The notes: a model not told the origin generated them from the sequence alone. Positions 9,473-28,327 are shown, numbered from the stretch's first letter. The stretch is 64,000 nt of DNA from Planctomycetota bacterium (GCA_012729725.1 JAAYCO010000094.1:557-64556); one strand, 5' to 3'. Translations and numbers: made by a program.

Positions 9473-9727
9473 CTACTGTTCGCGGCGAGCCAGGTATGTC
9501 TGCCGGATGTCGCGCAGGGCATAGCCGCTTTCGTTCAGCTTTCTGATCAGCCTGATGCGGCGGATGAGCGAGTGGTCGAAGAACCGGCCCCTTCCTTTAC
9601 CGTTTCGCATAGGGCGAATAAGGCCCAGCATTATGTAGTATTCAATCGTCTGGCCGCTGACCTTCGCCGCTTTTGCCGCGGCCGAAATGCGGTAGAGCTT
9701 TTCACATACTGGTTCTTCACGCACCAT
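9473..9727 (-). CDS. Minimal 84-aa MerR-family HTH protein with no effector domain
   Basis: LYRISAAAKAAKVSGQTIEYYIMLGLIRP is a MerR-type HTH. A short dimerisation helix follows. Confidence 0.55.
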   Translation of the reverse strand: MVREEPVCEKLYRISAAAKAAKVSGQTIEYYIMLGLIRPMRNGKGRGRFFDHSLIRRIRLIRKLNESGYALRDIRQTYLARREQ

Positions 9728-10314: not shown

Positions 10315-11458
10315 CGCCGCCATCCTCGCGGCCGGACCTGAACTCGCTCCACTGCCGGGCGAGATATTCCGCCAATCGTCGCCTGCATAAGGCCGAGTCG
10401 AACCGGCAGGCGTTGCGGCGAATCACCCGTTCGTCCGGTCGCGGCAGTTGCTCGAAATGCTCCACCGCCTGGACAATCGCATCGGGAGTGGGGGAATCGA
10501 AGAAAACGCCGGTTTCACGGTCGATTACTATTTCCGCGCTGCCGCCGTGGTTAAGGACAATCGCCGGGCAGCCGCAGGCTTGGGCCTCCACCGTGGTAAT
10601 GCCAAAGTCTTCTGATGCGGCGAAAACAAAGGCCTTGGCCTTGCGCATGTAGTCTCGCAGGGCCTCGCGGGATTGCCACCCCAGGAATTCGATGTTGGGT
10701 CCGGCAAGACGGCGTAATTGCTTCATCTGCCCGCCCTCGCCGATAACAACCAGACGCCTGTGGGGCATCATGCCGAAAGCCCGGACAACTGCATCAACCC
10801 TTTTGTAAGGCGCCAGGCGGGATGCGCACAGGTAGAAGTTCCGGCGCTTCTGGCCGGGGGTGAAATACGCGACGTCCACCGGCGGGTAAACAACCTCGCT
10901 CTGTCGCCTGTACGCCTTGCGGATTCTGCCGGCCACGAATTGAGAATTGGCAATAAAACTGTCAACGCCGTTAGCCGTGCGCGAATCCCACATTCTCAGG
11001 TAGTGAAGCATCGCCCTTGCAAGAAGTCCGCGTGCGCCGTGGTCCAGACCGGACTTCTGCAGGTACTCGTGCTGAAGATCCCAGGCATATCTCATCGGCG
11101 AATGGCATATGCACACATGCAACTGGTTCCCTGATGTAATGACGCCCTTGGCCACCGCGTGCGAGTTGGAGATGACCATGTCATAGCCGGTCATGTCGAA
11201 CTGCTCCACGGCCCAGGGCATGAGCGGCAGATAGCTTCTGAACTTGCGCCTGGCCAGCGGCAGTCGCTGAATGAAGCTGGTGCGAACCACTCTGCCGCCC
11301 AGAAACCCGCGATGGGCATGGGGCATGAAGTCCACGATGGCGAAGACATCAGCCTGCGGCAGGACGCCAAGCACCTCGGCGAGATATCTCTCAGATCCCA
11401 GAGGCGTCTCCAGCCACTCATGTACGACTGCGACCCGCAGATGTTGAAGGTCATTCAT
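10265..11458 (-). CDS. Glycosyltransferase family 4 (GT-B fold)
   Basis: The C-terminal EDFGITTVEAQACGCPAIVLNHGGSAEIVIDRETG is the GT1/GT4 EX7E region. Start taken at internal ATG (MNDLQHLRVAVVHEW). Confidence 0.8.
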   Translation of the reverse strand: MNDLQHLRVAVVHEWLETPLGSERYLAEVLGVLPQADVFAIVDFMPHAHRGFLGGRVVRTSFIQRLPLARRKFRSYLPLMPWAVEQFDMTGYDMVISNSHAVAKGVITSGNQLHVCICHSPMRYAWDLQHEYLQKSGLDHGARGLLARAMLHYLRMWDSRTANGVDSFIANSQFVAGRIRKAYRRQSEVVYPPVDVAYFTPGQKRRNFYLCASRLAPYKRVDAVVRAFGMMPHRRLVVIGEGGQMKQLRRLAGPNIEFLGWQSREALRDYMRKAKAFVFAASEDFGITTVEAQACGCPAIVLNHGGSAEIVIDRETGVFFDSPTPDAIVQAVEHFEQLPRPDERVIRRNACRFDSALCRRRLAEYLARQWSEFRSGREDGGAIESRRAATAVQGSPR

Positions 11459-11534
11459 CGGTCGAATTGTAGCGCCAGGCGTAGTTGATCCACGCCGGAA
11501 CCTGCCGACGCGCAATGCGCCGCTTTCAAGACTG

Positions 11535-11569
11535 TTGACGGCAAGAAGGCTCATGGTAGAATCAGTATC
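11535..11569 (+). promoter_or_regulatory. Sigma70-like promoter, TTGACG-16-(TGg)TAGAAT, upstream of the regulator/Hyf-like operon
   Basis: ttgacggcaagaaggctcatggtagaat is read directly. GAGAGG SD and the ATG follow about 35 nt downstream. Confidence 0.3.
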
Positions 11570-11604
11570 CTTAATTTCCTCTAGTTGGCCACAGAAGAGA
11601 GAGG

Positions 11605-12306
11605 ATGAGAAAAATGAGACTACGTGTCCGAGATGCGGCCCAGTTACTGGACGTTTCGGAAAAGACCGTCTACAGATGGATCAGCCAGAACTCGCTGCCG
11701 GTGCACCGCGTGAACGATCAGTATCGTTTCAATCGGGCCGAGCTGCTGGAGTGGGCCTCTTCTCAGCGAATCGCCGTCTCACCCAAGATGCTGGAAGAGC
11801 CGGAGGATGCGTTTATCCCGTCGCTGGCAGAGGCGATGAGGGCCGGGGGCATTCACTACCGTGTTGACGGCGCCGACAAACCCTCCGCGCTTCGTCACGT
11901 GGTTGAGGTTCTGCCGCTGCCCGAGGGTGTTGACCGCGACTTCTTGTTGCAGGTTCTGCTTGCCAGGGAGTCGGTCGGTTCGACCGCCATCGGAAACGGC
12001 ATAGCAATTCCTCATGTTCGCAATCCTATCACATTGCACGTGGACAAGCCGATGGTTGCCCTTACGTTCCTGGCCAACGGCATAGATTTCCAGGCGATGG
12101 ACGGCAAGCCGGTGAACACGCTGTTCACGATAATCAGCCCGACGATCAAGGCGCACCTCAACTTGTTGTCTAAGCTGGCCTACGGCCTCAAAGGCTCCGC
12201 CTTTGCCGATGCCGTGAAGGCGCAGGATTCGCGCGACGAGCTTTTCCGATGTGCGGCGGACCTGGACCAGCAGATAGCCTCAGCCATGCCGGAAACAGGA
12301 AAGTGA
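11605..12306 (+). CDS. Two-domain regulator: an excisionase/MerR-type HTH fused to a PTS EIIA type-2 (fructose/PtsN-like) domain
   Basis: LLDVSEKTVYRWISQNSLPVHRVNDQYRFNRAELLEW is the HTH. ARESVGSTAIGNGIAIPHVRNP is the EIIA-2 phosphorylatable-His motif. Its stop at 12304-12306 is 1 nt before the next ATG at 12308. Confidence 0.75.
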   Translation: MRKMRLRVRDAAQLLDVSEKTVYRWISQNSLPVHRVNDQYRFNRAELLEWASSQRIAVSPKMLEEPEDAFIPSLAEAMRAGGIHYRVDGADKPSALRHVVEVLPLPEGVDRDFLLQVLLARESVGSTAIGNGIAIPHVRNPITLHVDKPMVALTFLANGIDFQAMDGKPVNTLFTIISPTIKAHLNLLSKLAYGLKGSAFADAVKAQDSRDELFRCAADLDQQIASAMPETGK

Positions 12307-12307
12307 G

Positions 12308-14290
12308 ATGAGTCCCATCCTGTTATCCGCAGCCGTGTGCTTTCTCCTGGCGGGAGCGGTTCTCTGCGCGATGCTCTCTCGCGCGAAGGCCGCCAACGCC
12401 ATCGGCGGCATAGTCGCGGTAGTTGGCGCAGCGGTGGCGATTGCCTCAGCCGTACATGCCTTGCAGACAGGCGATGAGACGCTGCAACTGCCGTGGAGCG
12501 TTCCGTTTGGCAGCTTCCACATTTCCATAGACGGCCTCAGCGCGTTCTTCATTCTTGCGATTTCGGCGGTCTGCGCCTTGGGCGGGGTGTACGGGGTATC
12601 TTACCTGCGGCACTACAAGGGCAAGAATCTTGGCGCGTCGTGGTTCTTCTTCAACCTGCTGTTCGCGTCGATGCTTATGGTGGTTACCGCGTGGAATGCG
12701 GTTCTTTTTCTAGCTGCCTGGGAGGTGATGTCGCTTTCGTCATTCTTCCTTGTGACATTTGAGCACGAGCGCCAGGAGGTTCGCAAAGCCGGCTGGGTTT
12801 ACCTGATATCGGCGCATGTGGGCATGGCGTGTCTTCTGGCGATGTTCATCCTGCTGGGTGGCCAGAATCAGGTTATGGATTTCGATCAACTGGCTCTTCC
12901 TCCGGGCGTCAGTGCCGCCGCCATCTTTCTGCTTGCGGTTGTCGGGTTTGGCGCGAAGGCCGGCATTTGTCCGATGCACGTCTGGTTGCCCGACGCGCAC
13001 CCCGCGGCGCCCTCGCACGTTTCGGCCGTCATGAGCGGCGTGATGATCAAGACCGGCATATACGGCATTCTGAGGACGCTGACGTTTTTGGGATCGCCCG
13101 CATCCTGGCCGGGGTGGTGGGGGTGGACTCTGCTTGTCGCCGGGGCTATCACCGGCGTCGTGGGCATTCTTTTCGCCTTGGCGCAGCACGACATGAAGCG
13201 CGTGCTTGCTTATTCCAGTATCGAGAATGTCGGCGTGATCTGTCTGGGACTCGGCCTGTGGATGATCGGCTCAGCAGGCGGCAACACGATTATCGCCGCA
13301 TTGGGCCTGATAGGGGCGCTTCTGCATGTATGGAACCATGCGATTTTCAAGAGCCTGATGTTCCTTGGCGCCGGGGCTGTTGTCCACGCCACAGGAACTC
13401 GAAACATCGAGCAGCTTGGCGGCCTGCTCAAGCCGATGAAGCACACTGGCGTTGCATTTGCGATTGGCTCCATCGCCATCTGCGGGCTGCCTCCGTTCAA
13501 TGGCTTTGTTGGCGAGTTTCTGATCTACGCATCCGCTTTTGGCGGCATCGTGGGCCTGGGGGGCTCAGCGCCCATAGCCTGCCTGCTGGCGATTGCCGCT
13601 CTGGCTCTGATAGGTGGTTTGGCTGCGGTGTGTTTCACCAGGCTCTTCGGCATTATGTTCCTTGGCGAGCCTCGCAGCGAGGTGGCTCGTCATGCTCACG
13701 AGGCGGGCGTTTCGATGCGGGTAGTGCTTTGGATTCTGGCTGGGGCGTGCGTGCTTGTGGGCCTCGTCGGACCGCTCGTTGCGGGCGTTGCGGCTCTTGC
13801 CGCCGAAGATCTTCTGCCCTCAACCGGCCTTGATATCGGGCCGAGTCTTGGCCTGCTGTGGCGCATCAGCGGCGCCTCGGCTGGGCTAATTGTGTTCGCT
13901 GGGGCGTTCTGGCTGCTGCGGCGACGGCTGCATGCCGGCCGGCCAATTGAAAAAGCCGGAACATGGGATTGCGGTTACGCCGAGCCTACTTCTCGAATGC
14001 AGTACACGGCGTCTTCATTCTCCTGGCCGGTGATCGACATGTTCCGCCATGTATTGCGCCCGACGCTCACTCGTCAGTTGCCATCGGGGCCCTTCCCCGG
14101 CAGGGCGCACCTGACCAGCCGGACGCATGACATCTTCATGCGATTCTTCTACGTGCCGCTGTTCGCCATGGCGCAGCGCCTGGGCCAGAGCTTGCGGTGG
14201 GTTCAACACGGCCGCAACCAGGTGTACGTGCTGTACATCGCAGTCACGCTGCTGGCGCTGCTGCTGTGGAAGCTGGGGACGGAGCAATGA
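12308..14290 (+). CDS. Hydrogenase-4 component B-like / NuoL-MrpA-type antiporter-like membrane subunit, 660 aa
   Basis: About 15 TM helices with the NuoL/HyfB core (WLPDAHPAAPSHVSAVMSGVMIKTGIYG, YSSIENVGVI). Length matches HyfB. Confidence 0.85.
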   Translation: MSPILLSAAVCFLLAGAVLCAMLSRAKAANAIGGIVAVVGAAVAIASAVHALQTGDETLQLPWSVPFGSFHISIDGLSAFFILAISAVCALGGVYGVSYLRHYKGKNLGASWFFFNLLFASMLMVVTAWNAVLFLAAWEVMSLSSFFLVTFEHERQEVRKAGWVYLISAHVGMACLLAMFILLGGQNQVMDFDQLALPPGVSAAAIFLLAVVGFGAKAGICPMHVWLPDAHPAAPSHVSAVMSGVMIKTGIYGILRTLTFLGSPASWPGWWGWTLLVAGAITGVVGILFALAQHDMKRVLAYSSIENVGVICLGLGLWMIGSAGGNTIIAALGLIGALLHVWNHAIFKSLMFLGAGAVVHATGTRNIEQLGGLLKPMKHTGVAFAIGSIAICGLPPFNGFVGEFLIYASAFGGIVGLGGSAPIACLLAIAALALIGGLAAVCFTRLFGIMFLGEPRSEVARHAHEAGVSMRVVLWILAGACVLVGLVGPLVAGVAALAAEDLLPSTGLDIGPSLGLLWRISGASAGLIVFAGAFWLLRRRLHAGRPIEKAGTWDCGYAEPTSRMQYTASSFSWPVIDMFRHVLRPTLTRQLPSGPFPGRAHLTSRTHDIFMRFFYVPLFAMAQRLGQSLRWVQHGRNQVYVLYIAVTLLALLLWKLGTEQ

Positions 14291-15201
14291 TTATCCTGGC
14301 ATCAATAATCCACGTGGTGTTGGCGCTGTCGTTGTCGCCTCTGCTGATCGGCGTGATCAACCGGGTTAAGGCGAAATTTGCCGGCAGGCGGGGCCGGCCT
14401 CTGTTGCAGCTCTATTACGACCTCTGGAAGCTGCTTCACAAGGGCGCGGTCTACAGCACAACGACAACCTGGGTGTTCAGAACAGGCCCGCTGGTTGGCA
14501 TAAGCGCCGTGCTTGTTGCGATAAGTCTTGTTCCGCTTGGAAGAGTGCCTGCGCTGGCTGCCTTTGACGGCGATATCATTCTCCTTGCATACGTTCTGGG
14601 CCTGATGCGTTTCATGACGGTGCTGGCTGCTCTTGACACGGGTTCCGCGTTCGAGGGAATGGGCGCGGGAAGAGAAGTGCAGTTCTCGCTTCTGGCCGAG
14701 CCTGCGCTGCTGCTTGGCGTTGGCGCTCTTTCCATCAGCACCGGAGACTGGAGCCTTTCGGGCATATATGGTTCGCTGTTTGCGGACGGCCTGGCCGCTG
14801 TTGCCCCCACGGCTGTGATGGTCGCCGCAAGCCTGCTGATCATCCTGCTTGCCGAGAACTCGCGCATTCCAGTTGACGATCCAAACACTCACCTTGAACT
14901 GACGATGATTCACGAGGTTATGGTGCTGGACCATGGCGGCGTTGACCTGGCGTTCATTCAGTATGCCGCAGCCCTGAAGCTGTGGGTGTTCTGCGCCCTG
15001 TTCGTCGGCGTTGCTTTGCCTTTGCAGATGCACTGGCCGCTGGTGGATCTTGCCTTCGGTATGGCAGGGGTGTTCATCGTCGCTATGGTCATCGGGGTGA
15101 TCGAGAGCACCATGGCAAGGCTAAGGCTTCTTCGCGTGCCGCAGATGCTCGTTGTCTCGGCGGTGCTGGCGATGATCGCCGTCCTATGGGCGTTGAGGTA
15201 A
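14287..15201 (+). CDS. HyfC/HycD/NuoH-like membrane subunit
   Basis: MIILASIIHVVLALSLSPLLIGVINRVKAKFAGRRGRPLLQLYYDLWKL is a NuoH/HycD-type N-terminus. The ATGA overlap with the upstream stop indicates coupling. Confidence 0.85.
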   Translation: MIILASIIHVVLALSLSPLLIGVINRVKAKFAGRRGRPLLQLYYDLWKLLHKGAVYSTTTTWVFRTGPLVGISAVLVAISLVPLGRVPALAAFDGDIILLAYVLGLMRFMTVLAALDTGSAFEGMGAGREVQFSLLAEPALLLGVGALSISTGDWSLSGIYGSLFADGLAAVAPTAVMVAASLLIILLAENSRIPVDDPNTHLELTMIHEVMVLDHGGVDLAFIQYAAALKLWVFCALFVGVALPLQMHWPLVDLAFGMAGVFIVAMVIGVIESTMARLRLLRVPQMLVVSAVLAMIAVLWALR

Positions 15202-15205
15202 TGCT

Positions 15206-15853
15206 ATGTCGATCCTGACTGACTTGCTGATGATGCTGCTGGTGTTGACGAACCTGCGGATGCTTGCCTCCAGCCGGGTCGCCGTGTGCATTCAGAACGT
15301 GGCGATTCAGGCGGTGGTGCTTGGCGCCATTACGTTCAGCTTGTCGGCGCACGCCGCCATAGCCGCCGGCGTGATAGTCGTGGCGATATCCACAGTGGCT
15401 GTAAAGGGCCTGGTGCTTCCCTGGCTGTTGCGACGGGCGATGAAGGGGGCCGGCATCGGCAGGGAGATCGAGCCGTTTGTTGGCTATGCGTCTTCCGTGC
15501 TGATCGGAGCAGTGCTTCTTGGCCTGTGTTTCGTGATAGCCCGGCCGCTCCGGGACACGTCGCACGCCGGGGCTTCAATGCTGATACCCGTGGCGATGTT
15601 CACCATCCTGACCGGCTTGTTCATCATCATCTCGCGACGCAAGGCGCTTACGCAGGTTCTGGGCTATCTGACGATGGAGAACGGCGTGTGCGTTTTTGGC
15701 GTGTCGCTGGCTGTGGAGGAGCCGTTGCTTGTGGAGATGGGCATCCTGCTGGATGTTCTGGTGGGCGTGTTTGTCATGGGCATTGTGATCCACCAGATCA
15801 ATCGCGAATTCGACCACATAGACACCGACCGACTGTCGGTTCTAAAGGACTGA
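15206..15853 (+). CDS. HyfE-like small membrane subunit, 215 aa
   Basis: Size, all-helical membrane character and position between the HyfC- and HyfF-like genes all fit. Confidence 0.65.
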   Translation: MSILTDLLMMLLVLTNLRMLASSRVAVCIQNVAIQAVVLGAITFSLSAHAAIAAGVIVVAISTVAVKGLVLPWLLRRAMKGAGIGREIEPFVGYASSVLIGAVLLGLCFVIARPLRDTSHAGASMLIPVAMFTILTGLFIIISRRKALTQVLGYLTMENGVCVFGVSLAVEEPLLVEMGILLDVLVGVFVMGIVIHQINREFDHIDTDRLSVLKD

Positions 15854-15857
15854 GCGA

Positions 15858-17318
15858 ATGCTACTTGCCGTCGTGCTGATTCCTGCTGTGGCGGGTCTTG
15901 CGGTGATGGCGCCGTTTGTGAAACGCCTGCGCCTGGCGGTTCTGCTGCTTGCAGCGGTTGGTCACGCATCAGCCGTCGCATGGATATGCAGCAGGCCGCT
16001 TGCCGACAACAACGCGGATGCGTGGATCGCCCTGGACGCGCCGGGCCGCCTCTTCCTGGCTATCACAAGCATCCTGTTTCTGGCGGCGGCGACATATGCG
16101 ATAGGCTATCTCCGAAACGAGGAAAACCGCACCACCAAGGACGCCGAGGAAGGCTTCCTCTTTCGCAACGAGCCCATGAACATTTTCATCGGCTGCCTGC
16201 TGCTGTTCCTGGCGACGATGAGCCTGGTGTGCATCAGCCAGCACCTGGGGCTTCTATGGGTGGCCGTCGAAGCCACCACGCTGGTAAGCGCGCCGCTCAT
16301 CAGCTTTCACCGTCACCATCGCAGCCTTGAGGCAACGTGGAAGTATCTGCTGATATGCTCCGTGGGCATTGCGTTGGCGCTGCTGGGCATTTTCTTCATC
16401 GCGGCGGCCGGGCAAGGCGTTGTTCATGGCATGAACATACACGCCTTGACGAAAGCCGCCGGCAAGATGGACCCCGTGTGGCTCAAGGCGGCGTTCATAT
16501 TGCTGATTGTCGGATACGGCACGAAAATGGGCCTTGCGCCCATGCACAACTGGCTGCCGGACGCTCACAGCGAATCGCCTTCGCTTGTCTCGGCGTTGCT
16601 TTCGGGCGCTCTGCTCAACTGCGCTTTTCTGGGCCTGCTTCGCGGCCAGATGGTTATGTCCGCGGCGGGGCTTGGCGAGTTCAGCGGCGGGTTGCTTGTG
16701 CTGCTGGGCCTTCTGTCCATGATCGTCGCGGCGGTGTTCATGATCCGCCAGAGCGATTACAAGCGGCTTTTAGCGTATTCCAGCGTTGAACACATGGGCA
16801 TTCTTGCAATTGGAGCCGGACTTGGCGGATTGGCTGCCACAGGCGCCATGCTTCACGCGGTGAATCATTCCTTCACCAAGGGGATGCTGTTTCTGGTTGC
16901 GGGAAATCTGCTGGCGGCCCATCGCACAAAGAATATTCATGAAGTGCGCGGCGTGCTGACAACCCTGCCAATTACAGGCTGCCTTTGGGTAGGCGGCTTT
17001 CTGGCTATCACGGGGGCTCCGCCGTTTGGCATGTTCATCAGTGAATTGACCATCCTGAAGGGCGCCTTGCAGGGCGGGCACATTGTGGTGGGTGTTGTTT
17101 ATCTCGCAGCTTTGGCTGTCATTTTCATATCCATGGCCCGGTTGATGCCGCCGATGGCGTTTGGAATTCCGGCGGCCCAGATCAAGACCAAAGAGCCGCT
17201 CTGGGCGGTTGCGCCTCCGTTGGCGCTTGGGTTGGTTGTGCTGACCATGGGACTGTACGTGCCGGAATCGCTGTGGAACGCCCTTCGAGCCGCGGCCGGC
17301 GCAATTGGAGCAAACTGA
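15858..17318 (+). CDS. HyfF/NuoN-like antiporter-like membrane subunit
   Basis: The NuoM/N family core is present: WLPDAHSESPSLVSALLSGALLN and YSSVEHMGILAIG. Confidence 0.85.
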   Translation: MLLAVVLIPAVAGLAVMAPFVKRLRLAVLLLAAVGHASAVAWICSRPLADNNADAWIALDAPGRLFLAITSILFLAAATYAIGYLRNEENRTTKDAEEGFLFRNEPMNIFIGCLLLFLATMSLVCISQHLGLLWVAVEATTLVSAPLISFHRHHRSLEATWKYLLICSVGIALALLGIFFIAAAGQGVVHGMNIHALTKAAGKMDPVWLKAAFILLIVGYGTKMGLAPMHNWLPDAHSESPSLVSALLSGALLNCAFLGLLRGQMVMSAAGLGEFSGGLLVLLGLLSMIVAAVFMIRQSDYKRLLAYSSVEHMGILAIGAGLGGLAATGAMLHAVNHSFTKGMLFLVAGNLLAAHRTKNIHEVRGVLTTLPITGCLWVGGFLAITGAPPFGMFISELTILKGALQGGHIVVGVVYLAALAVIFISMARLMPPMAFGIPAAQIKTKEPLWAVAPPLALGLVVLTMGLYVPESLWNALRAAAGAIGAN

Positions 17319-17319
17319 G

Positions 17320-18798
17320 ATGTCCGCTGAGCATCCGGCAATTATCCGAAACGCGCAGGTGGCCGATCTTGAGGCATGTCCGTGCATGTCGGCGGGAGAC
17401 TTTCGCCAGACTCTATGCGCCCGCGTGTCGGCAGGGGCAAGGCTTTCGGCGCTGTTCGCCCGGCGAAAGGCGGGGGAATCCGGCGGCAGGCTATATGCCG
17501 TGCTGGCAATGCCGGGCTCGAACAACCTGGGCCTGCTTTGCTGCGACGTGGGCGATTCATACCCTTCAATAACCGGCGATTGTCCCGCGGCTCATTGGTT
17601 CGAGCGCGAAATCGCCGAGCGTGCGGGAATTCGCCCTGAAGGCCACCCGTGGCTCAAACCTGTTCGCTTTGCTGGCAAAGATGTTGGATTGACCGACTTC
17701 TACCGCATGGACGGCAATGAAGTGCATGAAGTCGCAGTCGGCCCGGTTCACGCCGGCGTTATAGAGCCCGGCCACTTCAGGTTCCAATGTCATGGCGAAA
17801 CCGTGCACCATCTTGAGATATCGCTTGGCTACCAGCATCGCGGCATAGAAGATGCATTAATCGGCGGCCCTGACGCCAGAACGATTCATTACATAGAGCC
17901 CCTTGCCGGCGACACCACCATCGGACATGCCACTGCGTACGCAATGGCGATCGAGGCGTTGGGCGGCTCGAGGCCTTCGGCGCGGGCGCACGCCATTCGC
18001 GCCATCGCCGCCGAGTTGGAACGTCTTGCGAACCACATCGGCGACCTGGGCGCGCTTGCGGGAGATGTGGGCTTCCTTCCGACCATGAGTTACTGCGGCA
18101 GGATTCGCGGCGACGTGTTGAACTGCACGGGCGTCTTGTGCGGCAACCGCTTCGGCAGACGCCTGGTTGTGCCGGGCGGAATTATGCACGATCTTGACGA
18201 GCGGTTGTGCAAGGATCTGCTGGATCGGCTTGAAAGCATAGAGCGGGATGCAACCGATGCGATCGAACTGATGTTCAACGCGCCATCGGTCCTGGCCAGG
18301 TTCGAAGGCGCCGGCACGGTCAGCCATGAGCTGGCGAACCAACTGGGCCTCGTCGGCGTCGCGGCCCGAGCAAGCGACATCGAGTACGACGTGAGACGCG
18401 AATTCCCCTACGGCATCTACCAGTTCACGCAGATGCCGATATGCACGTGGTCCACCGGCGACTGTTTCGCAAGGGCGTATGTGCGGTGGCTCGAGGCGAA
18501 ACAATCGTTCGCCTTTGTGCGAGAGCACCTGCGGTCGCTGCCGGCGGGCGCGACGCGCCAAGGCGTTGGCGAACTTGCCGCGGGCAAGATTGTCGTCGCG
18601 CTGGTTGAAGGCTGGCGCGGCGAGATATGCCACGTCGTCGGGACCGACCAGAGCGGGAGGTTTGCGTTCTATAAGATCGTAGATCCTTCGTTCCATAACT
18701 GGTTCGGGCTGGCCATGGCATTACGAGAGCAGCAGATCTCTGACTTCCCGTTGTGCAACAAGAGTTTCAATTTGTCCTACTGCGGCCACGACTTGTAG
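17320..18798 (+). CDS. HyfG/HycE-like NuoC-NuoD fusion. It is a group-4 hydrogenase large-subunit homologue lacking all four [NiFe]-ligating cysteines.
   Basis: The NuoC part carries AHWFEREIAERAGIRPEGHPWLKP. The NuoD/large-subunit part carries GPVHAGVIEPGHFRFQCHGETV and IGYQHRGIE. Where the N-terminal RxCGxCxxxH should be, the sequence reads PLAGDTTIGHATAY. The C-terminal DPCxxC position reads VDPSFHNW. Track start 17305 is a TTG inside the upstream gene; the ATG at 17320 has a GGAG SD. Confidence 0.85.
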   Translation: MSAEHPAIIRNAQVADLEACPCMSAGDFRQTLCARVSAGARLSALFARRKAGESGGRLYAVLAMPGSNNLGLLCCDVGDSYPSITGDCPAAHWFEREIAERAGIRPEGHPWLKPVRFAGKDVGLTDFYRMDGNEVHEVAVGPVHAGVIEPGHFRFQCHGETVHHLEISLGYQHRGIEDALIGGPDARTIHYIEPLAGDTTIGHATAYAMAIEALGGSRPSARAHAIRAIAAELERLANHIGDLGALAGDVGFLPTMSYCGRIRGDVLNCTGVLCGNRFGRRLVVPGGIMHDLDERLCKDLLDRLESIERDATDAIELMFNAPSVLARFEGAGTVSHELANQLGLVGVAARASDIEYDVRREFPYGIYQFTQMPICTWSTGDCFARAYVRWLEAKQSFAFVREHLRSLPAGATRQGVGELAAGKIVVALVEGWRGEICHVVGTDQSGRFAFYKIVDPSFHNWFGLAMALREQQISDFPLCNKSFNLSYCGHDL

Positions 18799-18801
18799 GA
18801 C

Positions 18802-19575
18802 ATGGAGATTTGGATGTTGGGCATACTCAAATCGCGTTTGAGGCAGAAGCATCGGACGATGCTGTACCCCAAAGGCCCCGCGCCGCAACTGCCAGAGAGG
18901 TTTGTGGGCCGGCCCACAGTCGCCGCCAATAAATGTGGCGATTGCAATGTGTGTGCGGCTGCCTGTCCGGTGGGGGCTATTACAAAAGGCCCCGATGGTT
19001 GTCCCAGGATCGATACGGGCAAATGCCTGTTCTGCGGCGCATGCGAACGATCATGCGAAGGCGGGATCATTAAATTCACGTCGGAATACCGACTGGCGGC
19101 GGCCTCGCGCGACGACCTGGTTGTCGGCCCCGACTCGCCGCGGTACATGCCGGCAAGAAATGATCTGGCGGCCAGGCTGTTTGGCAAGTCGCTGAAACTG
19201 CGTCAGGTCTCGGCGGGCGGCTGCAACGCGTGCGAGGCCGATTCCAACGTCTTGTGCACGCTTGCATGGGACCTGGGCAGATTCGGCATAGACTTCGTTG
19301 CCTCCCCCCGGCACGCCGACGGCCTGCTGATAACGGGCCCGGTTACGAGGAACATGGCGCTTGCCCTTCGCAAAACGTACGACGCCGTGCCGCAGCCGAG
19401 GATTGTGATCGCGGTCGGATCATGCGCAATTAGCGGCGGTCCGTTTGCGGGCCTTAAAGAGCAAAACAATGGAGCGGCAGGGATATTGCCCGTGGATCTT
19501 TTCATCCCCGGATGTCCGCCGCACCCGCTGACGATTCTTGACGGCCTGCTGCGTTTCCTCGGCAGGGTGGAGTGA
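18802..19575 (+). CDS. Fusion of a compact 2x[4Fe-4S] ferredoxin (HyfH/NuoI-like) with a hydrogenase-type small subunit (HyfI/HycG/NuoB-like)
   Basis: CGDCNVCAAACP and CLFCGACERSCEGG are the two ferredoxin motifs. GGCNACEAD (CxxCE), VGSCAISGGPF and IPGCPPHP are the small-subunit proximal-cluster ligands. Confidence 0.8.
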   Translation: MEIWMLGILKSRLRQKHRTMLYPKGPAPQLPERFVGRPTVAANKCGDCNVCAAACPVGAITKGPDGCPRIDTGKCLFCGACERSCEGGIIKFTSEYRLAAASRDDLVVGPDSPRYMPARNDLAARLFGKSLKLRQVSAGGCNACEADSNVLCTLAWDLGRFGIDFVASPRHADGLLITGPVTRNMALALRKTYDAVPQPRIVIAVGSCAISGGPFAGLKEQNNGAAGILPVDLFIPGCPPHPLTILDGLLRFLGRVE

Positions 19576-19578
19576 CGC

Positions 19579-21519
19579 TCAGGGCAGGTTCTCTATGGAA
19601 AGAGGCTCGATTTCGTCGGCGGGAATGAACCCGAATATCCTGCTGAAGAAGAACAGTTCCGCCTCCAACGCTCGCAGAATATTCTGCGCCCGCCTGAAGC
19701 CGTGCTGTTCGCCTTCAAACGGCATATAGGCGGTGGGCACACCCTTCTTGCGAAGCGCGTCGAACATCATCTGAGCCTGATTCGGCGGCACTATCGGATC
19801 CTCAAGGCCCTGGAAGAATATCACCGGACGCTTGAGGTTCTCCACATGATGAATGGGCGAACGCTTGTGATACAGGTCGCGTCTCTGGGGGTATGGGCCG
19901 ATAAGCCTTTCGAGGTAATGAGACTCGAATTTGTGCGTCTCCCTGGCCAGAATCTCGCAATCGCTGACGCCGAAATGGCTTGACCCTGCCGCGAAAACGT
20001 CGCGGAATGTCATTGCCGCCAGCACCGTGTACCCGCCGGCGCTGCCGCCGGTGATGGCCAGGCGATTGCGGTCCACTTTGCCGGCTTGTGCAAGATGAAG
20101 CGCGCCGGCGCAGACATCATCAACGTCGGCTTCGCCCCAGACGGTGTTGAGGCTCTGACGATAGGCCCTGCCGTAACCGCTGCTGCCGCGGTAGTTGACA
20201 TCCAGCACGGCGAATCCTCGGCTGGTGTAATACTGTATGTCCAACCGAAGCGCCGCTGACGCCGACGAGGTTGGGCCGCCATGCACCTTCACGATCAGCG
20301 GAGGCAACTCGTCGTCGCCGCCCTTGTAGTTGGCGTTCAGCGGCGGGTAGAACAGACCATGAGCCCGTGCGCCGCCGGCGGTGTCGAATGTTATCGGCTC
20401 GGGCGGCGAAAGGTAGTTGTCGTCCCATTCCAGGTGTGTCGCCTGTCGCAGCACTTCAATATTCCTGTTGCGCAGGTTCATCTTCACTATCGAGCTTGGC
20501 TCGCGCGAAGAAGCGCCGATGAAGTAGCCGAATGCCCCGCCTACTCGAACATCGGATATTGCCGTATACGGCGTCTGAATGTCGGAAAGATCGCCTGTCG
20601 GCACGTCCAGTTCCGCCAGGCGCCAGATGCCGTCCTTGCTGTACGCGCAGAGGATGAACAGCGGATTGACAAAGTCGTAGCACGACTGTCCCAGCCGCCA
20701 AAGAGGATAGCCAAACTCGCCTTCGATCTTTGTCAACGCCTCGACCTTGCCGTCGCGCAGGCAGTGGATGTTCCACCAGCCGTTCCATCGGTCGCTGACG
20801 AAATGCAGCACGTGGTCGCCGCTCCAGCGTGGTTGAAGCACTGCTTCTCCCTCACCGCCGGCGACCTTCGCCTGCTTACCGACGCCGCCGTCTCTGAGCA
20901 GTTCGGCCGTCCATAGCTCGGCCGCGTCCCAGGGCATGTCCGGGTGGTTCCACGTAAGGTAGGCAAGCATTTTGCCGTCGGCGGAGATTCTGGGCGCTGC
21001 GTAAAAATCGTTGCCCGAAACCAGGATGTCGCCCACGCCGCCATTGAGCGTGCTTACCGAGACAATGCTGTTGAGGGGCTCGGGGCCGCCGTGGTCCTCG
21101 CGGATGCAGATGACTCGCCCCATGTAGGGGTCGAACACGCCATCGGCGTACCTCGTGCTGTCCTGTGGCGTTAAGGCTGACGCCTCGCCGATGTCCTGGG
21201 CGTGGTACAACCTCTGGTCGTCGTAGTTGCTGAACACGGCGCCGCCGTAGACGACTGCATATGAGCCGCCGCCGTATTCATGAACCCTTGTGCGGGCGTT
21301 AAGCGGCGGGGGGTTGACCTCGCGTCGCGAGCCGTCGGGCGTTCGGCGGATCACGACGTATCTGCCGCCTTCGAGAGGGCGCAACTCATTCCAGTACACA
21401 TCGGGTCCGTCAACGTGAATCTCTCCCAGGCCAAGCATCGACGATGAGATCAACTCGGCAGTAATAGGCGACTGCCATGTTCCGTACTTCGCCACAAGCT
21501 TGTCCTGACGGGCGGTCAT
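19579..21519 (-). CDS. S9 family serine peptidase (prolyl oligopeptidase/acylaminoacyl peptidase type) with an N-terminal beta-propeller
   Basis: GGSAGGY is the GxSxGG nucleophile elbow. C-terminal Asp/His regions and a WD/TolB-like propeller are present. Start taken at MTARQDKL, which gives an ATGA overlap with the upstream gene. Confidence 0.85.
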   Translation of the reverse strand: MTARQDKLVAKYGTWQSPITAELISSSMLGLGEIHVDGPDVYWNELRPLEGGRYVVIRRTPDGSRREVNPPPLNARTRVHEYGGGSYAVVYGGAVFSNYDDQRLYHAQDIGEASALTPQDSTRYADGVFDPYMGRVICIREDHGGPEPLNSIVSVSTLNGGVGDILVSGNDFYAAPRISADGKMLAYLTWNHPDMPWDAAELWTAELLRDGGVGKQAKVAGGEGEAVLQPRWSGDHVLHFVSDRWNGWWNIHCLRDGKVEALTKIEGEFGYPLWRLGQSCYDFVNPLFILCAYSKDGIWRLAELDVPTGDLSDIQTPYTAISDVRVGGAFGYFIGASSREPSSIVKMNLRNRNIEVLRQATHLEWDDNYLSPPEPITFDTAGGARAHGLFYPPLNANYKGGDDELPPLIVKVHGGPTSSASAALRLDIQYYTSRGFAVLDVNYRGSSGYGRAYRQSLNTVWGEADVDDVCAGALHLAQAGKVDRNRLAITGGSAGGYTVLAAMTFRDVFAAGSSHFGVSDCEILARETHKFESHYLERLIGPYPQRRDLYHKRSPIHHVENLKRPVIFFQGLEDPIVPPNQAQMMFDALRKKGVPTAYMPFEGEQHGFRRAQNILRALEAELFFFSRIFGFIPADEIEPLSIENLP

Positions 21520-22580
21520 GAATGCTCCTTTTGCTCCACCAACGACGAGAGCACCTGGGCCATCGAAAAGCGAGCGCCGCACACAAGGCTGTCGGATGCC
21601 CCGTAGTAGATCGTTATCTGGTCGCCGTTGACCACGTGGCCGTTGCTGAAGACCACGTTGGCGAAAAACCCGTTTCGTTCATACTCCATGATAGGTTCCA
21701 TGATGGGCTGACGGCTTCTGGCGATGACGCGAGCGGGATTCTCGATGTCCAGCAGCATTGCCCCAAGGCAGTAGCGGTGGTCAAAATCGGCTCCATGGTA
21801 GATAAGAAGCCAGCCCTTGTCGGTAAGGATGGGCGCCGCCCCCGCGCCAATTCGTTCCTCATCCCACATTCCGGGGCGGGTGCGGGCGACGCACTGATGA
21901 CGGCCCCAGTTTTGCAGGTCATCAGATGTTGAGAGCCAGATATATGGTCCGCCAACCTCAACACCCATAGGCCGGTGAAGCAGGGCATAGCGGCCGGCGA
22001 TTTTCCGCTCGAATAACGCTGCGTCCTTGTTGTGCGGCGGCAGGATCATGCCCAGCCGAGTGAAGGACTTCCAGTCCTGCGTGGTCATGAGCGCCACTCC
22101 AGCGCCGAAGCGAGACACGGCTGTGTATGTCAGGCAAAAAGTCTCATCGAGCCGGGCAACCCGGCAGTCTTCCACTCCAAACTCCTCCATCGGGCCTTCG
22201 CCGATGATGGCGGGCAAGTCATCCACGTCGAACCGTACGCCGTCGTTACTCCACGCAAGGCGAAGATGTGAAAGGGAGGTGAGATACTTCTCGCCGCGAT
22301 AACTGAAGATTCTTGGATCGCTAGCTATCAAGTCCCGGTCGTTCAGGTGGAATTCGAGCATTCTCACGCCCGCCGGGGCGGACGGGTCGCTTATCGCCGT
22401 CCGCAGGAAACCCTCAGCCTGAATCGGCTGCTGGGCCACTCGCAATAGCAGGGCGGTTCTGCCTTTGTAGACAAATGCGCCCGGGTTCATGACCCCGATG
22501 ACCCTCAGGTCGCTCCTGCTGGGCCTTACGCCGGCTGGGGTTATGATCGGGTTCTCATCAAATCTCTGCGCTATGTCCAT
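21516..22580 (-). CDS. GH130 family glycosidase/phosphorylase (DUF377 beta-propeller)
   Basis: NPGAF, WSNDGVRF, YHGA and IYYGASDSLVCGA are typical of GH130 five-bladed propellers. Start set at internal ATG MDIAQRFDENPIITP; the longer track ORF has a non-homologous leader. Confidence 0.7.
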   Translation of the reverse strand: MDIAQRFDENPIITPAGVRPSRSDLRVIGVMNPGAFVYKGRTALLLRVAQQPIQAEGFLRTAISDPSAPAGVRMLEFHLNDRDLIASDPRIFSYRGEKYLTSLSHLRLAWSNDGVRFDVDDLPAIIGEGPMEEFGVEDCRVARLDETFCLTYTAVSRFGAGVALMTTQDWKSFTRLGMILPPHNKDAALFERKIAGRYALLHRPMGVEVGGPYIWLSTSDDLQNWGRHQCVARTRPGMWDEERIGAGAAPILTDKGWLLIYHGADFDHRYCLGAMLLDIENPARVIARSRQPIMEPIMEYERNGFFANVVFSNGHVVNGDQITIYYGASDSLVCGARFSMAQVLSSLVEQKEHS

Positions 22581-22623
22581 CTGCCTAGAATTGTACGGAG
22601 GAATGTTTGTAAGGAGTAGGATC

Positions 22624-23748
22624 ATGGCAGTACTAATCAAAGAATCTCCCATCAGGCGTATACAGCTGTTTGGGCAGGACATCTGGTTGGACTTCATCGA
22701 CAGGGGACTGATTCGTAGCGGCTCGCTTGCCAGGCTGATCGAGGAAGACGGCATTTCCGGCGTAACTTCGAACCCGACCATCTTTGAGCAGTCGTTCTCC
22801 GGCGGCGAATACGACGACGACATACACGAAATGGCCGGCCAGGGACTCGGCGCCGAGGACATATACAAGCGCATAACCTCGGCCGAGATAAGATCCGCCG
22901 CTGACGTGTTCATGCCGCTGTTCGAATCAAGCAGGGGGAGGCGGGGGTTTGTCAGCCTCGAAGTATCGCCTCACCTGGCATATGATCCCGTCCGAACCGT
23001 TCAAGAGGCGCGCGAGCTGCGGGATCTGGTGGATCGGCCGAACTTGCTGGTCAAGATTCCCGCAACCATGGAGGGTCTGGCGGCAATTCGCCAGTGCATC
23101 AGCGAGGGCATCAGCATTAACGTGACGTTGCTGTTTGGCCTGTCAAGATACATGCACGTCGCACAGGCGTACATCGAGGGCCTTGAGGAACGGACGGGCA
23201 GGAACGAGTCGCCAGTTGGAGTTACCTCCGTCGCCAGCTTCTTCCTGAGCCGCATTGACGCGATGGTTGACCCGATGCTTGACCGCATCTCGCTTGGCGG
23301 ACCAGGAAGCGAACAGGCCAAGACGCTCTTCGGGCAGGTTGCAAGCTGCTGCGCGAAGATTGCATACCAGATGCAGCAGGAGATATTCGCAAGCCCGAAG
23401 TTTCACGATCTTGCGGCCAAGGGCGCGACGCCTCAGCGGTTGCTATGGGCGTCGACGGGCACGAAGAACCCGATGTTCAGCGACATCAAGTACGTCGAAT
23501 CGCTGATCGGTCTGGACACGATAAACACCATGCCGATGGCGACGCTCAAGGCCTACCAGGACCACGGCGAGCCGGAATCGCGGCTGGACATGAACCCGGA
23601 CAGGCCGGTGAGGCTGCTATCGCATCTTGATGATCTTGGCATAAAGCTTGACGAGATTGCCGACGCGCTTGAGCTTGAAGGCGTCGAAAAGTTCAAGAAG
23701 CCTTACGATGCTTCATTGGATCGCATTCGGCAGCGCGGTGCGAAGTAA
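22624..23748 (+). CDS. tal: Transaldolase (long ~370-aa type)
   Basis: GISGVTSNPTIFEQ and VTSVASFFLSRIDAMVD carry the Schiff-base lysine region of the transaldolase family. AAGGAG SD precedes the ATG at 22624. Confidence 0.85.
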   Translation: MAVLIKESPIRRIQLFGQDIWLDFIDRGLIRSGSLARLIEEDGISGVTSNPTIFEQSFSGGEYDDDIHEMAGQGLGAEDIYKRITSAEIRSAADVFMPLFESSRGRRGFVSLEVSPHLAYDPVRTVQEARELRDLVDRPNLLVKIPATMEGLAAIRQCISEGISINVTLLFGLSRYMHVAQAYIEGLEERTGRNESPVGVTSVASFFLSRIDAMVDPMLDRISLGGPGSEQAKTLFGQVASCCAKIAYQMQQEIFASPKFHDLAAKGATPQRLLWASTGTKNPMFSDIKYVESLIGLDTINTMPMATLKAYQDHGEPESRLDMNPDRPVRLLSHLDDLGIKLDEIADALELEGVEKFKKPYDASLDRIRQRGAK

Positions 23749-25231: not shown

Positions 25232-25501
25232 ATGATGAAAGAGAAGCATACGATCCTGGGCGTTCATATCACCGATCGAGTCAAAGAGGCGGTTGCGGTT
25301 CAGAGGTTATTGACTCAGTTCGGCGAGCAGATTAAGACGCGCCTTGGCCTGCATGAGGTGGGCAGCGCAACATCCCCCAACGGCCTGCTGCTGCTGGAGA
25401 TGGTCGGCCCCGATGCGGGCATTCAGGAACTCAGCGACAAGCTTAACGCCATCGACGGCGTCGAAGTGCAATCCATGGTGTTCTTCCACCTGGCTGACTA
25501 A
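25232..25501 (+). CDS. Small ACT/NikR-C-like protein, reminiscent of the TM1266-type iron-only-hydrogenase-system regulator family; assignment is tentative
   Basis: 89 aa with a beta-alpha-beta-beta-alpha-beta pattern (ILGVHITDRVKEAVAVQRLLTQFGEQIKTRLGLHE...GLLLLEMVG). GGAGA SD precedes it. It overlaps the convergent U32 stop by 4 nt. Confidence 0.35.
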   Translation: MMKEKHTILGVHITDRVKEAVAVQRLLTQFGEQIKTRLGLHEVGSATSPNGLLLLEMVGPDAGIQELSDKLNAIDGVEVQSMVFFHLAD

Positions 25502-27997: not shown

Positions 27998-28327
27998 CTA
28001 GTAGCGTCTGCCGCCGCCGCCAGAGCCGCCGAAGCCGCCTCTGGGGCCTCTGCCGCCGCCGCCACTGCCGCCGCGATCCTCGCGGGGCTTGGCTTCATTG
28101 ACGGTCAACGCCCTGCCGGAATAATCCTTGCCGTTTAGGGCTGCGATAGCTGCCTGAGCTTCGCTGTCCGATGACATCTCAACAAATCCAAAACCTTTGC
28201 TTCTGCCGGTCATCTTGTCCTGAATGACCGCTGCGCTCTCGACGGTGCCGTACTGGCCAAAAAGGTCCTGTAACTCGGCATCGCCAACACTGTAACTAAG
28301 GTTTCCAACATAAAGCTTCTTGCCCAT
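27998..28327 (-). CDS. RRM-type RNA-binding protein with a Gly/Arg-rich C-terminal tail
   Basis: KLYVGNLSY is RNP2 and KGFGFVEM is RNP1. A GGSGGGGRGPRGGFGG tail follows. Confidence 0.85.
   Translation of the reverse strand: MGKKLYVGNLSYSVGDAELQDLFGQYGTVESAAVIQDKMTGRSKGFGFVEMSSDSEAQAAIAALNGKDYSGRALTVNEAKPREDRGGSGGGGRGPRGGFGGSGGGGRRY

Follow-up and report, generated by a model that had tools for sequence, protein, structure and literature searches.

What does an operon encode that has the gene order of a formate hydrogenlyase but whose large subunit lacks ligands for a NiFe centre? The question is raised by a locus from a Planctomycetota bacterium, studied within a stretch of 64,000 nt (GCA_012729725.1 JAAYCO010000094.1:557-64556; hereafter the window, with positions counted from its start). 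Taken together, the data make it probable that this locus encodes an energy-converting hydrogenase-related (Ehr) complex, with ferredoxin-fed ion translocation and a re-purposed pocket.

Organization of the operon

A single compact operon of seven genes, regulator included, occupies 11614-19575 on the forward strand. The features of the locus are:

11535..11562, +: putative promoter, sigma-70-like, TTGACG-16-TAGAAT with TG before the -10 (10/12 matches)
11566..11579, +: possible degenerate remnant, TATCC-N4-TTTCC, of the (A/T)TGTCCA direct repeat of relatives (weak)
11614..12306, +: regulator, N-terminal HTH_17 (excisionase/MerR-type) domain and PtsN-like PTS EIIA domain (Pfam)
12308..14290, +: EhrA, HyfB/HycC-like antiporter-type subunit, 660 aa (Proton_antipo_M, 1e-48; NCBIfam HyfB NF005086, 617 bits)
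14287..15201, +: EhrB, HycD/HyfC (NuoH-type) subunit, 304 aa (Pfam NADHdh, 6.9e-30)
15206..15853, +: EhrC, HyfE-like subunit, 215 aa (NCBIfam NF008556, 5.9e-28)
15858..17318, +: EhrD, HyfF-like antiporter-type subunit, 486 aa (NCBIfam HyfF, 362 bits, 4e-108)
17320..18798, +: EhrL, NuoC-NuoD fused large subunit, 492 aa (Pfam PF00329, Complex1_30kDa, and PF00346, Complex1_49kDa)
18814..19575, +: EhrS, NuoI/HycF-like 2x[4Fe-4S] domain and NuoB/HycG/MbhJ-like proximal-cluster domain (Pfam Fer4 twice, Oxidored_q6)

The genes run from the HTH and PtsN-like EIIA regulator through HyfB/HycC-like, HycD-like, HyfE-like and HyfF-like membrane subunits to the NuoC-NuoD fusion and the NuoI-like/NuoB-like fusion. 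Each of the six structural genes has strong family matches (Pfam, NCBIfam, PDB), which bears out the order given in the initial annotation and its likening of the locus, in subunit content and order, to hydrogenase-4 and formate hydrogenlyase operons. Inspection of the junctions also agrees with the tight coupling described there (ATGA, TGAnATG and short gaps): TGAgATG joins the regulator to EhrA and EhrD to EhrL; an ATGA overlap joins EhrA to EhrB; 4-nt gaps separate EhrB from EhrC and EhrC from EhrD; and 3 nt separate EhrL from ATG 18802, where the longest EhrS reading frame begins. By family alignment and by the public gene calls, the likelier EhrS start is ATG 18814, preceded by GGAG 6 nt upstream. 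The regulator has an alternative start at ATG 11605, and public gene calls take the 230-aa start. The six structural genes of the original description stand, but its count of six does not: the regulator gene, coupled in translation to EhrA, belongs to the unit and brings the total to seven.

Loss of the NiFe site in the large subunit

EhrL matches PF00346 at 5e-39, and its scores against solved homologues are 123 bits for HycE (1.7e-34), 121 for Nqo4 (6e-34), 114 for MbhL (8e-32) and 65 for MbsL. After alignment to HycE, neither NiFe CxxC motif is found in EhrL. The HycE L1 segment 'drvCgiCgfah' falls on 'eplAgdTtigh' (RVCGIC to PLAGDT), and the L2 segment 'sldpCysCtdr' on 'sfnlSycGhdl' (DPCYSC to NLSYCG). 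A196, T199, S486 and G489 fill the four NiFe-ligand positions, both in the HMMER alignment to HycE and in a 151-sequence alignment whose hydrogenase members show ERxCGxC and CYSCTD; the EhrL motifs are EPLAGDT and FPLCNKSFNLSYCGHDL-stop. EhrL also has no C-terminal extension, its end coinciding with the HycE cleavage point. Because all four ligand cysteines are replaced and the protein ends at this point, EhrL cannot be a NiFe hydrogenase, as the claim that it binds no NiFe centre had implied. The accompanying term "cysteine-free" must be withdrawn, as EhrL has 16 Cys and cysteines other than the ligands are conserved.

Among the closest relatives, C157, C479 and C488 do not vary, and C259 and C274 hardly do. 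One of these, C488, is flanked by the former C-terminal ligand positions; like C479 and H490, it is invariant within this clade. In the Ehr family at large these residues are kept less strictly (Cys at 488 in 60/109 representatives and at 479 in 80/109, His at 490 in 41/109), so they are not a general catalytic device. Among the best cluster representatives, 109 could be aligned at both motifs; 107 of these lack at least one of the four ligand Cys, and only two keep both CGxC and CYSC. Most of the 107 share an A/S-G-D-S/T and S-Y-x-G-x-D signature, in which A/S-G-D-S/T replaces C-G-x-C and an Asp stands within the former NiFe motif. Sequences of the EhrL family are 59-71% identical across phyla with invariant pocket segments, which indicates strong purifying selection rather than decay. 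The AlphaFold monomer of EhrL has HycE (7z0s_E) as its top fold match (TM 0.78); its pLDDT is below 50 exactly at pocket segments 119-170 and 474-492, so the model says nothing on pocket geometry.

Iron-sulfur wire and membrane arm

The small subunit retains the full Fe-S ligand set that had been proposed. Residues 2-109 of EhrS match NuoI (55.6 bits) and HycF (45 bits), and residues 124-256 match MbhJ (106 bits) and HycG (97.5 bits). In the ferredoxin domain, seven cysteines never vary (C48/C51/C55 and C75/C78/C81/C85), and an eighth, C45, is present in at least 85% of sequences; in the NuoB domain, the proximal [4Fe-4S] ligands C141/C144/C208/C238 are invariant in 79 sequences. Judged by this conservation (12/12 Cys ligands, 11 invariant), EhrS keeps the ligands for three [4Fe-4S] clusters. 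Its GGCNACE motif is the hydrogenase-type CxxC, not the CC of complex I.

In the membrane arm, EhrA scores 244 bits against HycC (7z0s_C) and has invariant E139, K217, K248, H340, H344, K348 and E403. EhrD scores 107 bits against MbhH (6cfw_H), with invariant E138, K223, H333, H337, K341 and E396; it departs from the canonical set at the TM8 Lys position, which is Asn254. Channel Glu, Lys and His residues are retained in both of these antiporter-like subunits. EhrB matches HycD (7z0s_D, 101 bits) and MbhM (79 bits) and gives no match to NuoH at E<=1e-3; its invariant loops are DTGS.FEGMG and E..R.P.DDP.THLELTMIHEV. The C-terminal half of EhrC is NuoK-like (Pfam Oxidored_q2, residues 129-214).

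Conservation of the cassette

The Ehr operon is a self-contained cassette, and at least 585 species representatives carry a member of the class. The six-subunit cluster is colinear in the best 80 genome loci. The full order, regulator-A-B-C-D-L-S, is colinear in 59/60 genome loci and 58/63 metagenome loci; the other five metagenome loci carry the same regulator and differ only by a second EhrA paralogue. No other neighbour gene recurs around the cassette, and no conserved electron-donor partner gene was found near it. When 57 ORFs spanning the window were scanned with Pfam, hyp, fdh, hycB, hycI, hyfJ and further nuo genes were all absent, in agreement with the reported lack of maturation, formate dehydrogenase and polyferredoxin genes in the 64 kb. 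Likewise, hyp, fdh and hycB are absent beside the cassette in 160 related loci, and no FDH, NuoE/F or HycB-like gene recurs in the flanks of the best 80 genome loci.

Regulator and putative promoter

The dedicated regulator noted immediately upstream proves to be a coupled, conserved first gene of the cassette, preceding EhrA in 59/60 genome loci. It matches HTH_17 (7.6e-15) and PTS_EIIA_2 (PF00359, 1.8e-23), and its top PDB matches are the PtsN structures 3urr and 1a6j. The motif RE..GST..G.G.A.PH.RNP contains an invariant His137, and His184 (AH184L) is also invariant. The protein has the features of a PtsN-type EIIA: the EIIA-2 fold; a His in G.A.PH (AIPH137); and a second conserved His. No ptsP or ptsO gene lies in the window.

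The site at 11535..11562 is the top promoter-like site on the forward strand of 11300-19900, and relatives have TTGAC...TAnAAT at the equivalent place upstream of the regulator gene. It overlaps the start of a divergent GT4 gene. Upstream of the regulator, TGTCC-N5-TGTCC occurs in 36/127 loci of relatives, as compared to 0.7% of control windows; these repeats lie 40 to 60 nt before the start of the regulator gene, on the forward strand only, with a 10-nt period, and the (A/T)TGTCCA direct repeats follow the promoter. The window's own promoter region contains no match at <=2 mismatches.

These features suggest that the HTH-EIIA protein, whose conserved His would be the phosphorylation site, probably controls its own operon. 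Its binding sites in relatives would be the head-to-tail (A/T)TGTCCA repeats that closely follow the promoter, and expression would thereby be tied to the phosphorylation state of a nitrogen-type PTS. A more speculative proposal, which we consider doubtful, is that Ehr cassettes are mobile and self-regulated, with the HTH-EIIA protein on its repeats turning on a ferredoxin-driven ion pump in response to PEP/nitrogen status and with a redox reaction in the Asp pocket. If true, this reaction would be new to the complex I superfamily. So far as the Ehr literature was searched, it contains no description of the regulator link or the Asp signature.

Assignment and proposed mechanism

Coppi is said to have given an early account of the Ehr class in 2005. 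Knowledge of the class dates back to about 2005, judging by the citations in PMC7894505. It is defined in PMC6349859, PMC10284858, PMC12342949 and PMC7894505, was named in Geobacter and is found in many phyla; its function was called unknown as late as 2025. Ehr is a previously described family of membrane complexes, derived from H2-producing enzymes, of which the present operon is a typical member: the large subunit is homologous to group 4 [NiFe] and NuoD subunits and has no NiFe cysteines; the proximal [4Fe-4S] ligands are kept; and the gene set is EhrA-D, L and S. The Ehr-like reading in the initial annotation is supported by this combination of a Hyf/Hyc-type module, lost NiFe ligands and retained Fe-S ligands.

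The proposed reaction begins with a low-potential cytoplasmic donor, most likely ferredoxin, which would dock on the NuoI-like N-terminal domain of EhrS. The choice of ferredoxin is suggested by the missing partner module and by likeness to MBH and Ech. Electrons would then travel via both ferredoxin-type clusters to the proximal one, located where EhrS, EhrL and EhrB meet. Here, a putative acceptor, probably hydrophilic, would be reduced in a pocket rebuilt around the family-conserved Asp, and this reaction would power the translocation of H+ or Na+ by way of EhrB, C, D and A. Operation of the entire sequence in the opposite direction is also conceivable.

Alternative functions

One unlikely possibility would be a ferredoxin:quinone oxidoreductase, or a reversed, pmf-driven quinol:ferredoxin oxidoreductase, acting with menaquinone as a minimal complex I or NDH-1-like enzyme. 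The architecture is that of complex I minus the NADH module, EhrL scores as well against Nqo4 as against HycE, and EhrL Asp249 is aligned with Nqo4 Asp139. Nitrospirales need reverse electron flow. Ehr is common in this group (PMC12342949). However, EhrL has Ile and Gly where Nqo4 carries the quinone ligands His38 and Tyr87, EhrB resembles HycD and MbhM rather than NuoH, and the CxxC of EhrS is of the hydrogenase type. Respiratory complex I was rejected as an assignment, the quinone His/Tyr, the tandem CC and a NuoH match all being absent.

The operon might instead encode the membrane part of an FDH-Ehr complex that oxidises formate, its electrons entering through a formate dehydrogenase encoded elsewhere. 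Ehr subunits are more abundant in formate-grown Geobacter (PMC7894505), and an FDH-Ehr complex has been proposed for Margulisbacteria and Saganbacteria (PMC6349859). This reading is improbable here: the 64 kb contain no FDH, NuoE/F or HycB-like gene, none recurs in the flanks mentioned above, and the closest NiFe-type relative likewise has none on its own contig.

Yu et al. are said to have reported in 2020 that Pyrococcus MBS lost NiFe and gained sulfur chemistry. With this hydrogenase-derived complex (PDB 6u8y) as precedent, a sulfur, polysulfide or disulfide reductase can be envisaged, in which the proximal cluster and the clade-specific C479 and C488 reduce an S-S bond; the clade-invariant position of C488 between the former ligand sites is compatible with such a role. 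Its likelihood is similarly low, as C479, C488 and H490 are not kept throughout the family, MbsL is the most distant solved homologue of EhrL and Mrp-type MBS subunits are absent from the operon. On these last two grounds, an MBS/Mbx sulfane-sulfur reductase was rejected.

PtsN proteins regulate K+ transport in Proteobacteria. A redox-gated cation transporter without net catalysis, its Fe-S arm sensing redox and the PtsN-like protein linking it to ion homeostasis, would fit the intact antiporter-like subunits and the lack of a recognisable substrate site. It is given little credence: a complete three-cluster wire and a near-invariant pocket over many phyla seem beyond the need of a sensor, and the HTH domain and repeats suggest transcriptional control rather than direct gating.

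An ordinary Hyf/FHL-type [NiFe] hydrogenase of group 4, with misaligned motifs and its maturation and formate dehydrogenase genes elsewhere in the genome, accords with the gene order, the membrane subunits and the public label 'Ni,Fe-hydrogenase III large subunit' of relatives, but is essentially refuted by the absence in EhrL of the L1 RxCGxC and L2 DPCxxC cysteines and of an extension for protease processing, and by the lack of hyp and hycI genes in the window.

Comparison with known systems

The Ehr assignment would place the operon beside Geobacter sulfurreducens GSU0739-0745, the founding Ehr, which by description has the same six subunit kinds and a large subunit without NiFe cysteines (PMC7894505, PMC6349859, PMC12342949). 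The Geobacter set lists an 'EhrA-1', implying two EhrA, whereas the window has one.

E. coli FHL (Hyc, 7z0s) provides the best solved matches for EhrA (HycC), EhrB (HycD) and, by both sequence and fold, EhrL (HycE), and the gene order is that of E. coli Hyf. In contrast to Hyc/Hyf, the Ehr operon has neither NiFe ligands nor a C-terminal processing tail, the HycF-like and HycG-like parts are fused into EhrS, and the window lacks HycB/HyfA, FdhF, HyfD, HyfJ, HycI and hyp genes.

The nearest true [NiFe] relatives, P0225 and P0236, probably belong to group 4f; in Planctomycetota MAGs they are named 'hydrogenase large subunit'. Their large subunits are 37-40% identical to EhrL and share the FPLxNKSFNL context around the C-terminal motif, and their genes are ordered as in the window (membrane genes, large subunit, Fe-S genes). 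Unlike EhrL, they keep ERxCGxC and CYSCTD[LR] and match Pfam NiFeSe_Hases; in P0236 the ferredoxin and the NuoB-like protein have a gene each, whereas in EhrS they are fused.

Pyrococcus furiosus MBH (6cfw) and MBS/Mbx (6u8y) are ferredoxin-fed, ion-translocating complex I relatives. MBH provides the best matches for EhrD (MbhH) and the NuoB-like part of EhrS (MbhJ), but the Ehr operon lacks Mrp-type small subunits, and MbsL scores only 65 bits against EhrL. Complex I (Nuo/Nqo) and photosynthetic NDH-1 have homologous Q-module and P-module folds, and E. coli NuoCD is a fusion like EhrL. In contrast to complex I, Ehr lacks NuoEFG and the quinone-binding His/Tyr, has CxxC instead of CC in its NuoB-like domain, and builds its membrane arm with two antiporter-like subunits where complex I has three.

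Results

Operon layout and subunit identities

Seven plus-strand genes with near-zero spacing occupy 11.6-19.6 kb of the window. A regulator gene is followed by six genes, named here after the energy-converting hydrogenase-related (Ehr) cassette.

Genes of the operon (plus strand), with junctions, family assignments and best matches
Regulator: HTH + EIIA protein; first gene
EhrA: TGAgATG junction with regulator; HyfB/HycC; best solved match 7z0s_C, 244 bits
EhrB: ATGA overlap with EhrA, start 14287; HycD; best solved match 7z0s_D, 101 bits; MbhM, 79 bits
EhrC: 4 nt after EhrB; HyfE; NCBIfam NF008556 (a family model, not a structure match)
EhrD: 4 nt after EhrC; HyfF; best solved match MbhH, 107 bits
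EhrL (large subunit): TGAgATG junction with EhrD; NuoC+NuoD fusion; HycE 123, Nqo4 121, MbhL 114, MbsL 65 bits
EhrS (Fe-S small subunit): 3 nt from EhrL to ATG 18802; residues 2-109 NuoI/HycF (NuoI 55.6, HycF 45 bits); residues 124-256 MbhJ/HycG/NuoB (MbhJ 106, HycG 97.5 bits)

Judged by sequence, the family assignments are unambiguous, and the closest solved structures support them. The Hyf/Hyc-type six-gene module described in the initial annotation is upheld by family matches for all six proteins, and by solved-structure matches for the five other than EhrC. The more likely EhrS start, on the conservation of Met5 and on public gene calls, is ATG 18814, which has GGAG 6 nt upstream. At 19573-19581, the EhrS stop codon lies 3 nt from that of a convergent S9 peptidase gene; no terminator-like hairpin was found 3' of the operon.

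The large subunit

In the alignment with HycE, the first ligand motif (HycE drvCgiCgfah) corresponds to eplAgdTtigh in EhrL. The second (sldpCysCtdr) corresponds to sfnlSycGhdl, after which comes the stop codon, placing the EhrL C-terminus near the processing point of HycE. This leaves none of the four NiFe ligands in place, and the complex cannot bind NiFe. This agrees with the loss of the NiFe site first read from the sequence; the accompanying description of the subunit as "cysteine-free" is wrong, as EhrL contains 16 cysteines. Three of these (C157, C479 and C488) never vary among the closest relatives, two more (C259 and C274) hardly do, and the final 17 residues, FPLCNKSFNLSYCGHDL, are almost invariant.

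The AlphaFold monomer of EhrL has a good overall fold (pLDDT 82, pTM 0.86), with HycE as the best fold match (TM 0.78) and E. coli NuoCD next. The pocket segments, residues 119-170 (window 17674-17829) and 474-492 (18739-18795), have pLDDT below 50, and it is precisely these two that are best conserved in the protein. The model suggests that they probably need partner subunits or a cofactor for folding.

The EhrL cluster representative has I for V at position 454, its single difference from the window protein, and is present on two contigs of one organism, the same as that of the window. Contigs of this organism occur in ERZ773285 and JGI 3300009680 (Ga0123335), and an identical regulator gene is also found on a Ga0123334 contig.

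Relatives and the family boundary

Database relatives of EhrL number more than 8000. MAGs of Planctomycetota/Phycisphaerae, Desulfobacterota and Acidobacteriota supply the best 120, at 61-71% identity. When one genome was scanned for each species, at least 599 pattern matches resulted, of which at least 585 were confirmed as relatives. Best hits, at 68-80%, fall in planctomycete MAGs, and on these alone a planctomycete is the probable source organism. The best 80 loci of the scan additionally take in Verrucomicrobiota, Kiritimatiellia, Zixibacteria, Poribacteria, Hydrogenedentes and Lentisphaerae, with no Geobacter among them; further Ehr relatives come from Bacteroidota, Nitrospirota and others.

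Searched exhaustively, a set of 1.84 billion cluster representatives yielded 848 clusters at E<=1e-30, and the family boundary was counted over the best 109 that could be aligned at both motifs. Hydrogenase motifs occur in only two, at 37-40% identity: P0225 (ERICGVC ... CYSCTDL) and P0236 (ERVCGAC ... CYSCTDR). The remainder lack the full cysteine set, and the majority are Ehr-type. In this remainder, Ala/Ser stands at position 196, Gly at 197 with few exceptions, and Thr/Ser at 199. Position 198 carries Asp in 98 of the 109; Ser486 is present in 100 and Gly489 in 102. The extra residues C488 (60/109), C479 (80/109) and H490 (41/109) are specific to clades; what marks the family as a whole is thus the Asp flanked by the former N-terminal ligand positions. 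In these alignments, A/S-G-D-S/T ... S-Y-x-G-x-D separates Ehr from true hydrogenases. C479, C488 and H490 vary in the wider family, which weakens the idea that together they make up a new active site.

The electron wire and membrane subunits

Outside the catalytic subunit, conservation suggests that the rest of the complex looks functional. Over 79 EhrS sequences, both CxxCxxCxxxC motifs and the four proximal-cluster cysteines (C141, C144, C208 and C238, with a hydrogenase-type CxxC) are conserved. Eleven Fe-S cysteines are invariant and C45 is present in at least 85%, bearing out the full ligand set previously ascribed to this subunit. EhrA retains E139, K217, K248, H340, H344, K348 and E403, and EhrD retains E138, K223, H333, H337, K341 and E396, with Asn at its TM8 lysine position. 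EhrB has invariant loops, distinct from the HycD and NuoH ones. The window complex keeps a wire of three clusters together with pump residues, and is under strong selection.

A conserved regulator and candidate operator

The regulator joins an excisionase/MerR-type HTH (HTH_17) to an EIIA domain whose closest solved relatives are PtsN proteins. In a 29-sequence alignment, the phospho-acceptor motif G.A.PH (His137) and a second conserved His (His184) are invariant. The dedicated upstream regulator noted in the initial annotation is kept at 59 of the 60 loci whose upstream DNA is long enough to show it.

In the relatives, the regulator gene is preceded by a sigma-70-like promoter (TTGAC...TAnAAT) and then by (A/T)TGTCCA direct repeats, in two to four copies with a 10-nt period (for example loci L006, L005, L041 and L090). 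The strict form TGTCC-N5-TGTCC is found in 36 of 127 upstream regions as against 0.7% of control windows, with all matches on the forward strand at -40 to -60 from the regulator start. These repeats form a candidate operator, to which the HTH-EIIA protein would bind. As excisionase-type domains bind direct repeats head-to-tail (lambda Xis), this protein probably autoregulates the Ehr operon. The window has the promoter at 11535-11562 (10/12 matches, the sole plus-strand site in 8.6 kb), followed only by a degenerate TATCC-N4-TTTCC. The operator proposal applies at the family level only, because no TGTCC-N5-TGTCC occurs upstream of the window regulator at up to two mismatches.

Cassette conservation and surroundings

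The order regulator-A-B-C-D-L-S is conserved in the best 80 genome loci. When metagenomes were searched with the regulator alignment, EhrA lay directly 3' of the regulator in 58 of 63 loci assessed, and the gene set was complete in each of the 22 loci whose downstream DNA reached far enough. The other five of the 63 (L098, L100, L121, L130 and L136) carry an extra EhrA-like paralogue of ~668 aa, 40% identical to EhrA, between regulator and EhrA, for example at L136:9768-11774.

Clustering of flanking ORFs in the 80 genome loci revealed no recurrent formate dehydrogenase, NuoE/F or HycB. It picked out only a sigma-54 response regulator (14/80, in variable position) and an ABC ATPase (11/80), both of which were rejected as partners. 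As no other neighbour recurs, the cassette is self-contained.

Within the 64 kb, Pfam scans of 57 ORFs, short intergenic ones included, detected none of hyp, hycI, hyfJ, hycB and fdh and no additional nuo gene, confirming the absences noted at first reading. The neighbours are housekeeping and carbohydrate genes (GT4 transferase, S9 peptidase, GH130, transaldolase and others), and tRNA and Rfam scans of 1-64000 were negative, with neither a tRNA gene nor an Rfam family at threshold.

Other features in the window
9473-9727, minus: 84-aa MerR-family HTH gene, in an intergenic gap
21516-22913, minus: GH130 phosphorylase
22489-23748, plus: transaldolase
25232-25501, plus: 89-aa ORF, sub-threshold Pfam match (24.7 bits, cut-off 27) to a TM1266-like "iron-only hydrogenase system regulator"
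27998-28396, minus: 132-aa RRM-type RNA-binding protein gene, in an intergenic gap

The window showed neither an FeFe hydrogenase gene nor a maturase gene. The longest GH130 and transaldolase ORFs overlap by ~425 nt, an artefact of start-codon choice, since public calls start GH130 later (354 aa).

Discussion

The features of the window complex match the literature definition of Ehr complexes, whose function is still called unknown (PMC6349859; PMC10284858; PMC12342949, July 2025). The Ehr-like interpretation made from sequence was right, and membership is very probable. If the complex operates as proposed, a ferredoxin-type donor would deliver electrons to the NuoI-like domain of EhrS; these would pass to the proximal cluster; an acceptor would be reduced at the rebuilt pocket; and ion translocation would be coupled in. 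This general mechanism is given a little better than an even chance.

A quinone reductase, or a quinol:ferredoxin enzyme running in reverse, is disfavoured. In the alignment with Nqo4, Asp139 is retained (EhrL Asp249), but the quinone ligands His38 and Tyr87 are replaced by Ile and Gly; moreover, EhrB is of the HycD type, with no NuoH match among solved structures at 1e-3. An FDH-Ehr complex finds no synteny support in the loci analysed. Sulfur chemistry of the MBS kind at the EhrL cysteines would draw on residues that are not family-wide. The wire and pocket are conserved beyond what a sensor would seem to need, which speaks against a redox-gated transporter. A true hydrogenase is refuted by the four replaced ligands.

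The Ehr class is already known and common, and the window locus adds nothing fundamentally new. The additions are a cognate regulator that is conserved and has a candidate operator, the finding that no partner gene is conserved, the Asp signature and the corrected cysteine count; the first three offer comparative handles for experiments. Ehr complexes are widespread, as the species representatives attest. HydDB excludes them as non-hydrogenases (PMC5037454). Public annotation calls them "hydrogenase" or "NADH-quinone oxidoreductase subunit C", and database names of distant relatives are generic or misleading. Such misannotation inflates metagenome estimates of H2 metabolism.

In Geobacter, EhrA-1, EhrC, EhrL and EhrS have been named (PMC7894505), and the second HyfB-like subunit of the variant cassettes recalls the "EhrA-1" naming; for the gene preceding the Geobacter ehr cluster, a literature search on GSU0738 was without result. 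The nearest NiFe-type relative (P0236, at locus L163) has the same gene order as the Ehr cassette, but its ferredoxin (114 aa) and NuoB-like (158 aa) genes are separate, whereas in Ehr they are fused. Ehr complexes occupy an evolutionary position between hydrogenases and complex I.
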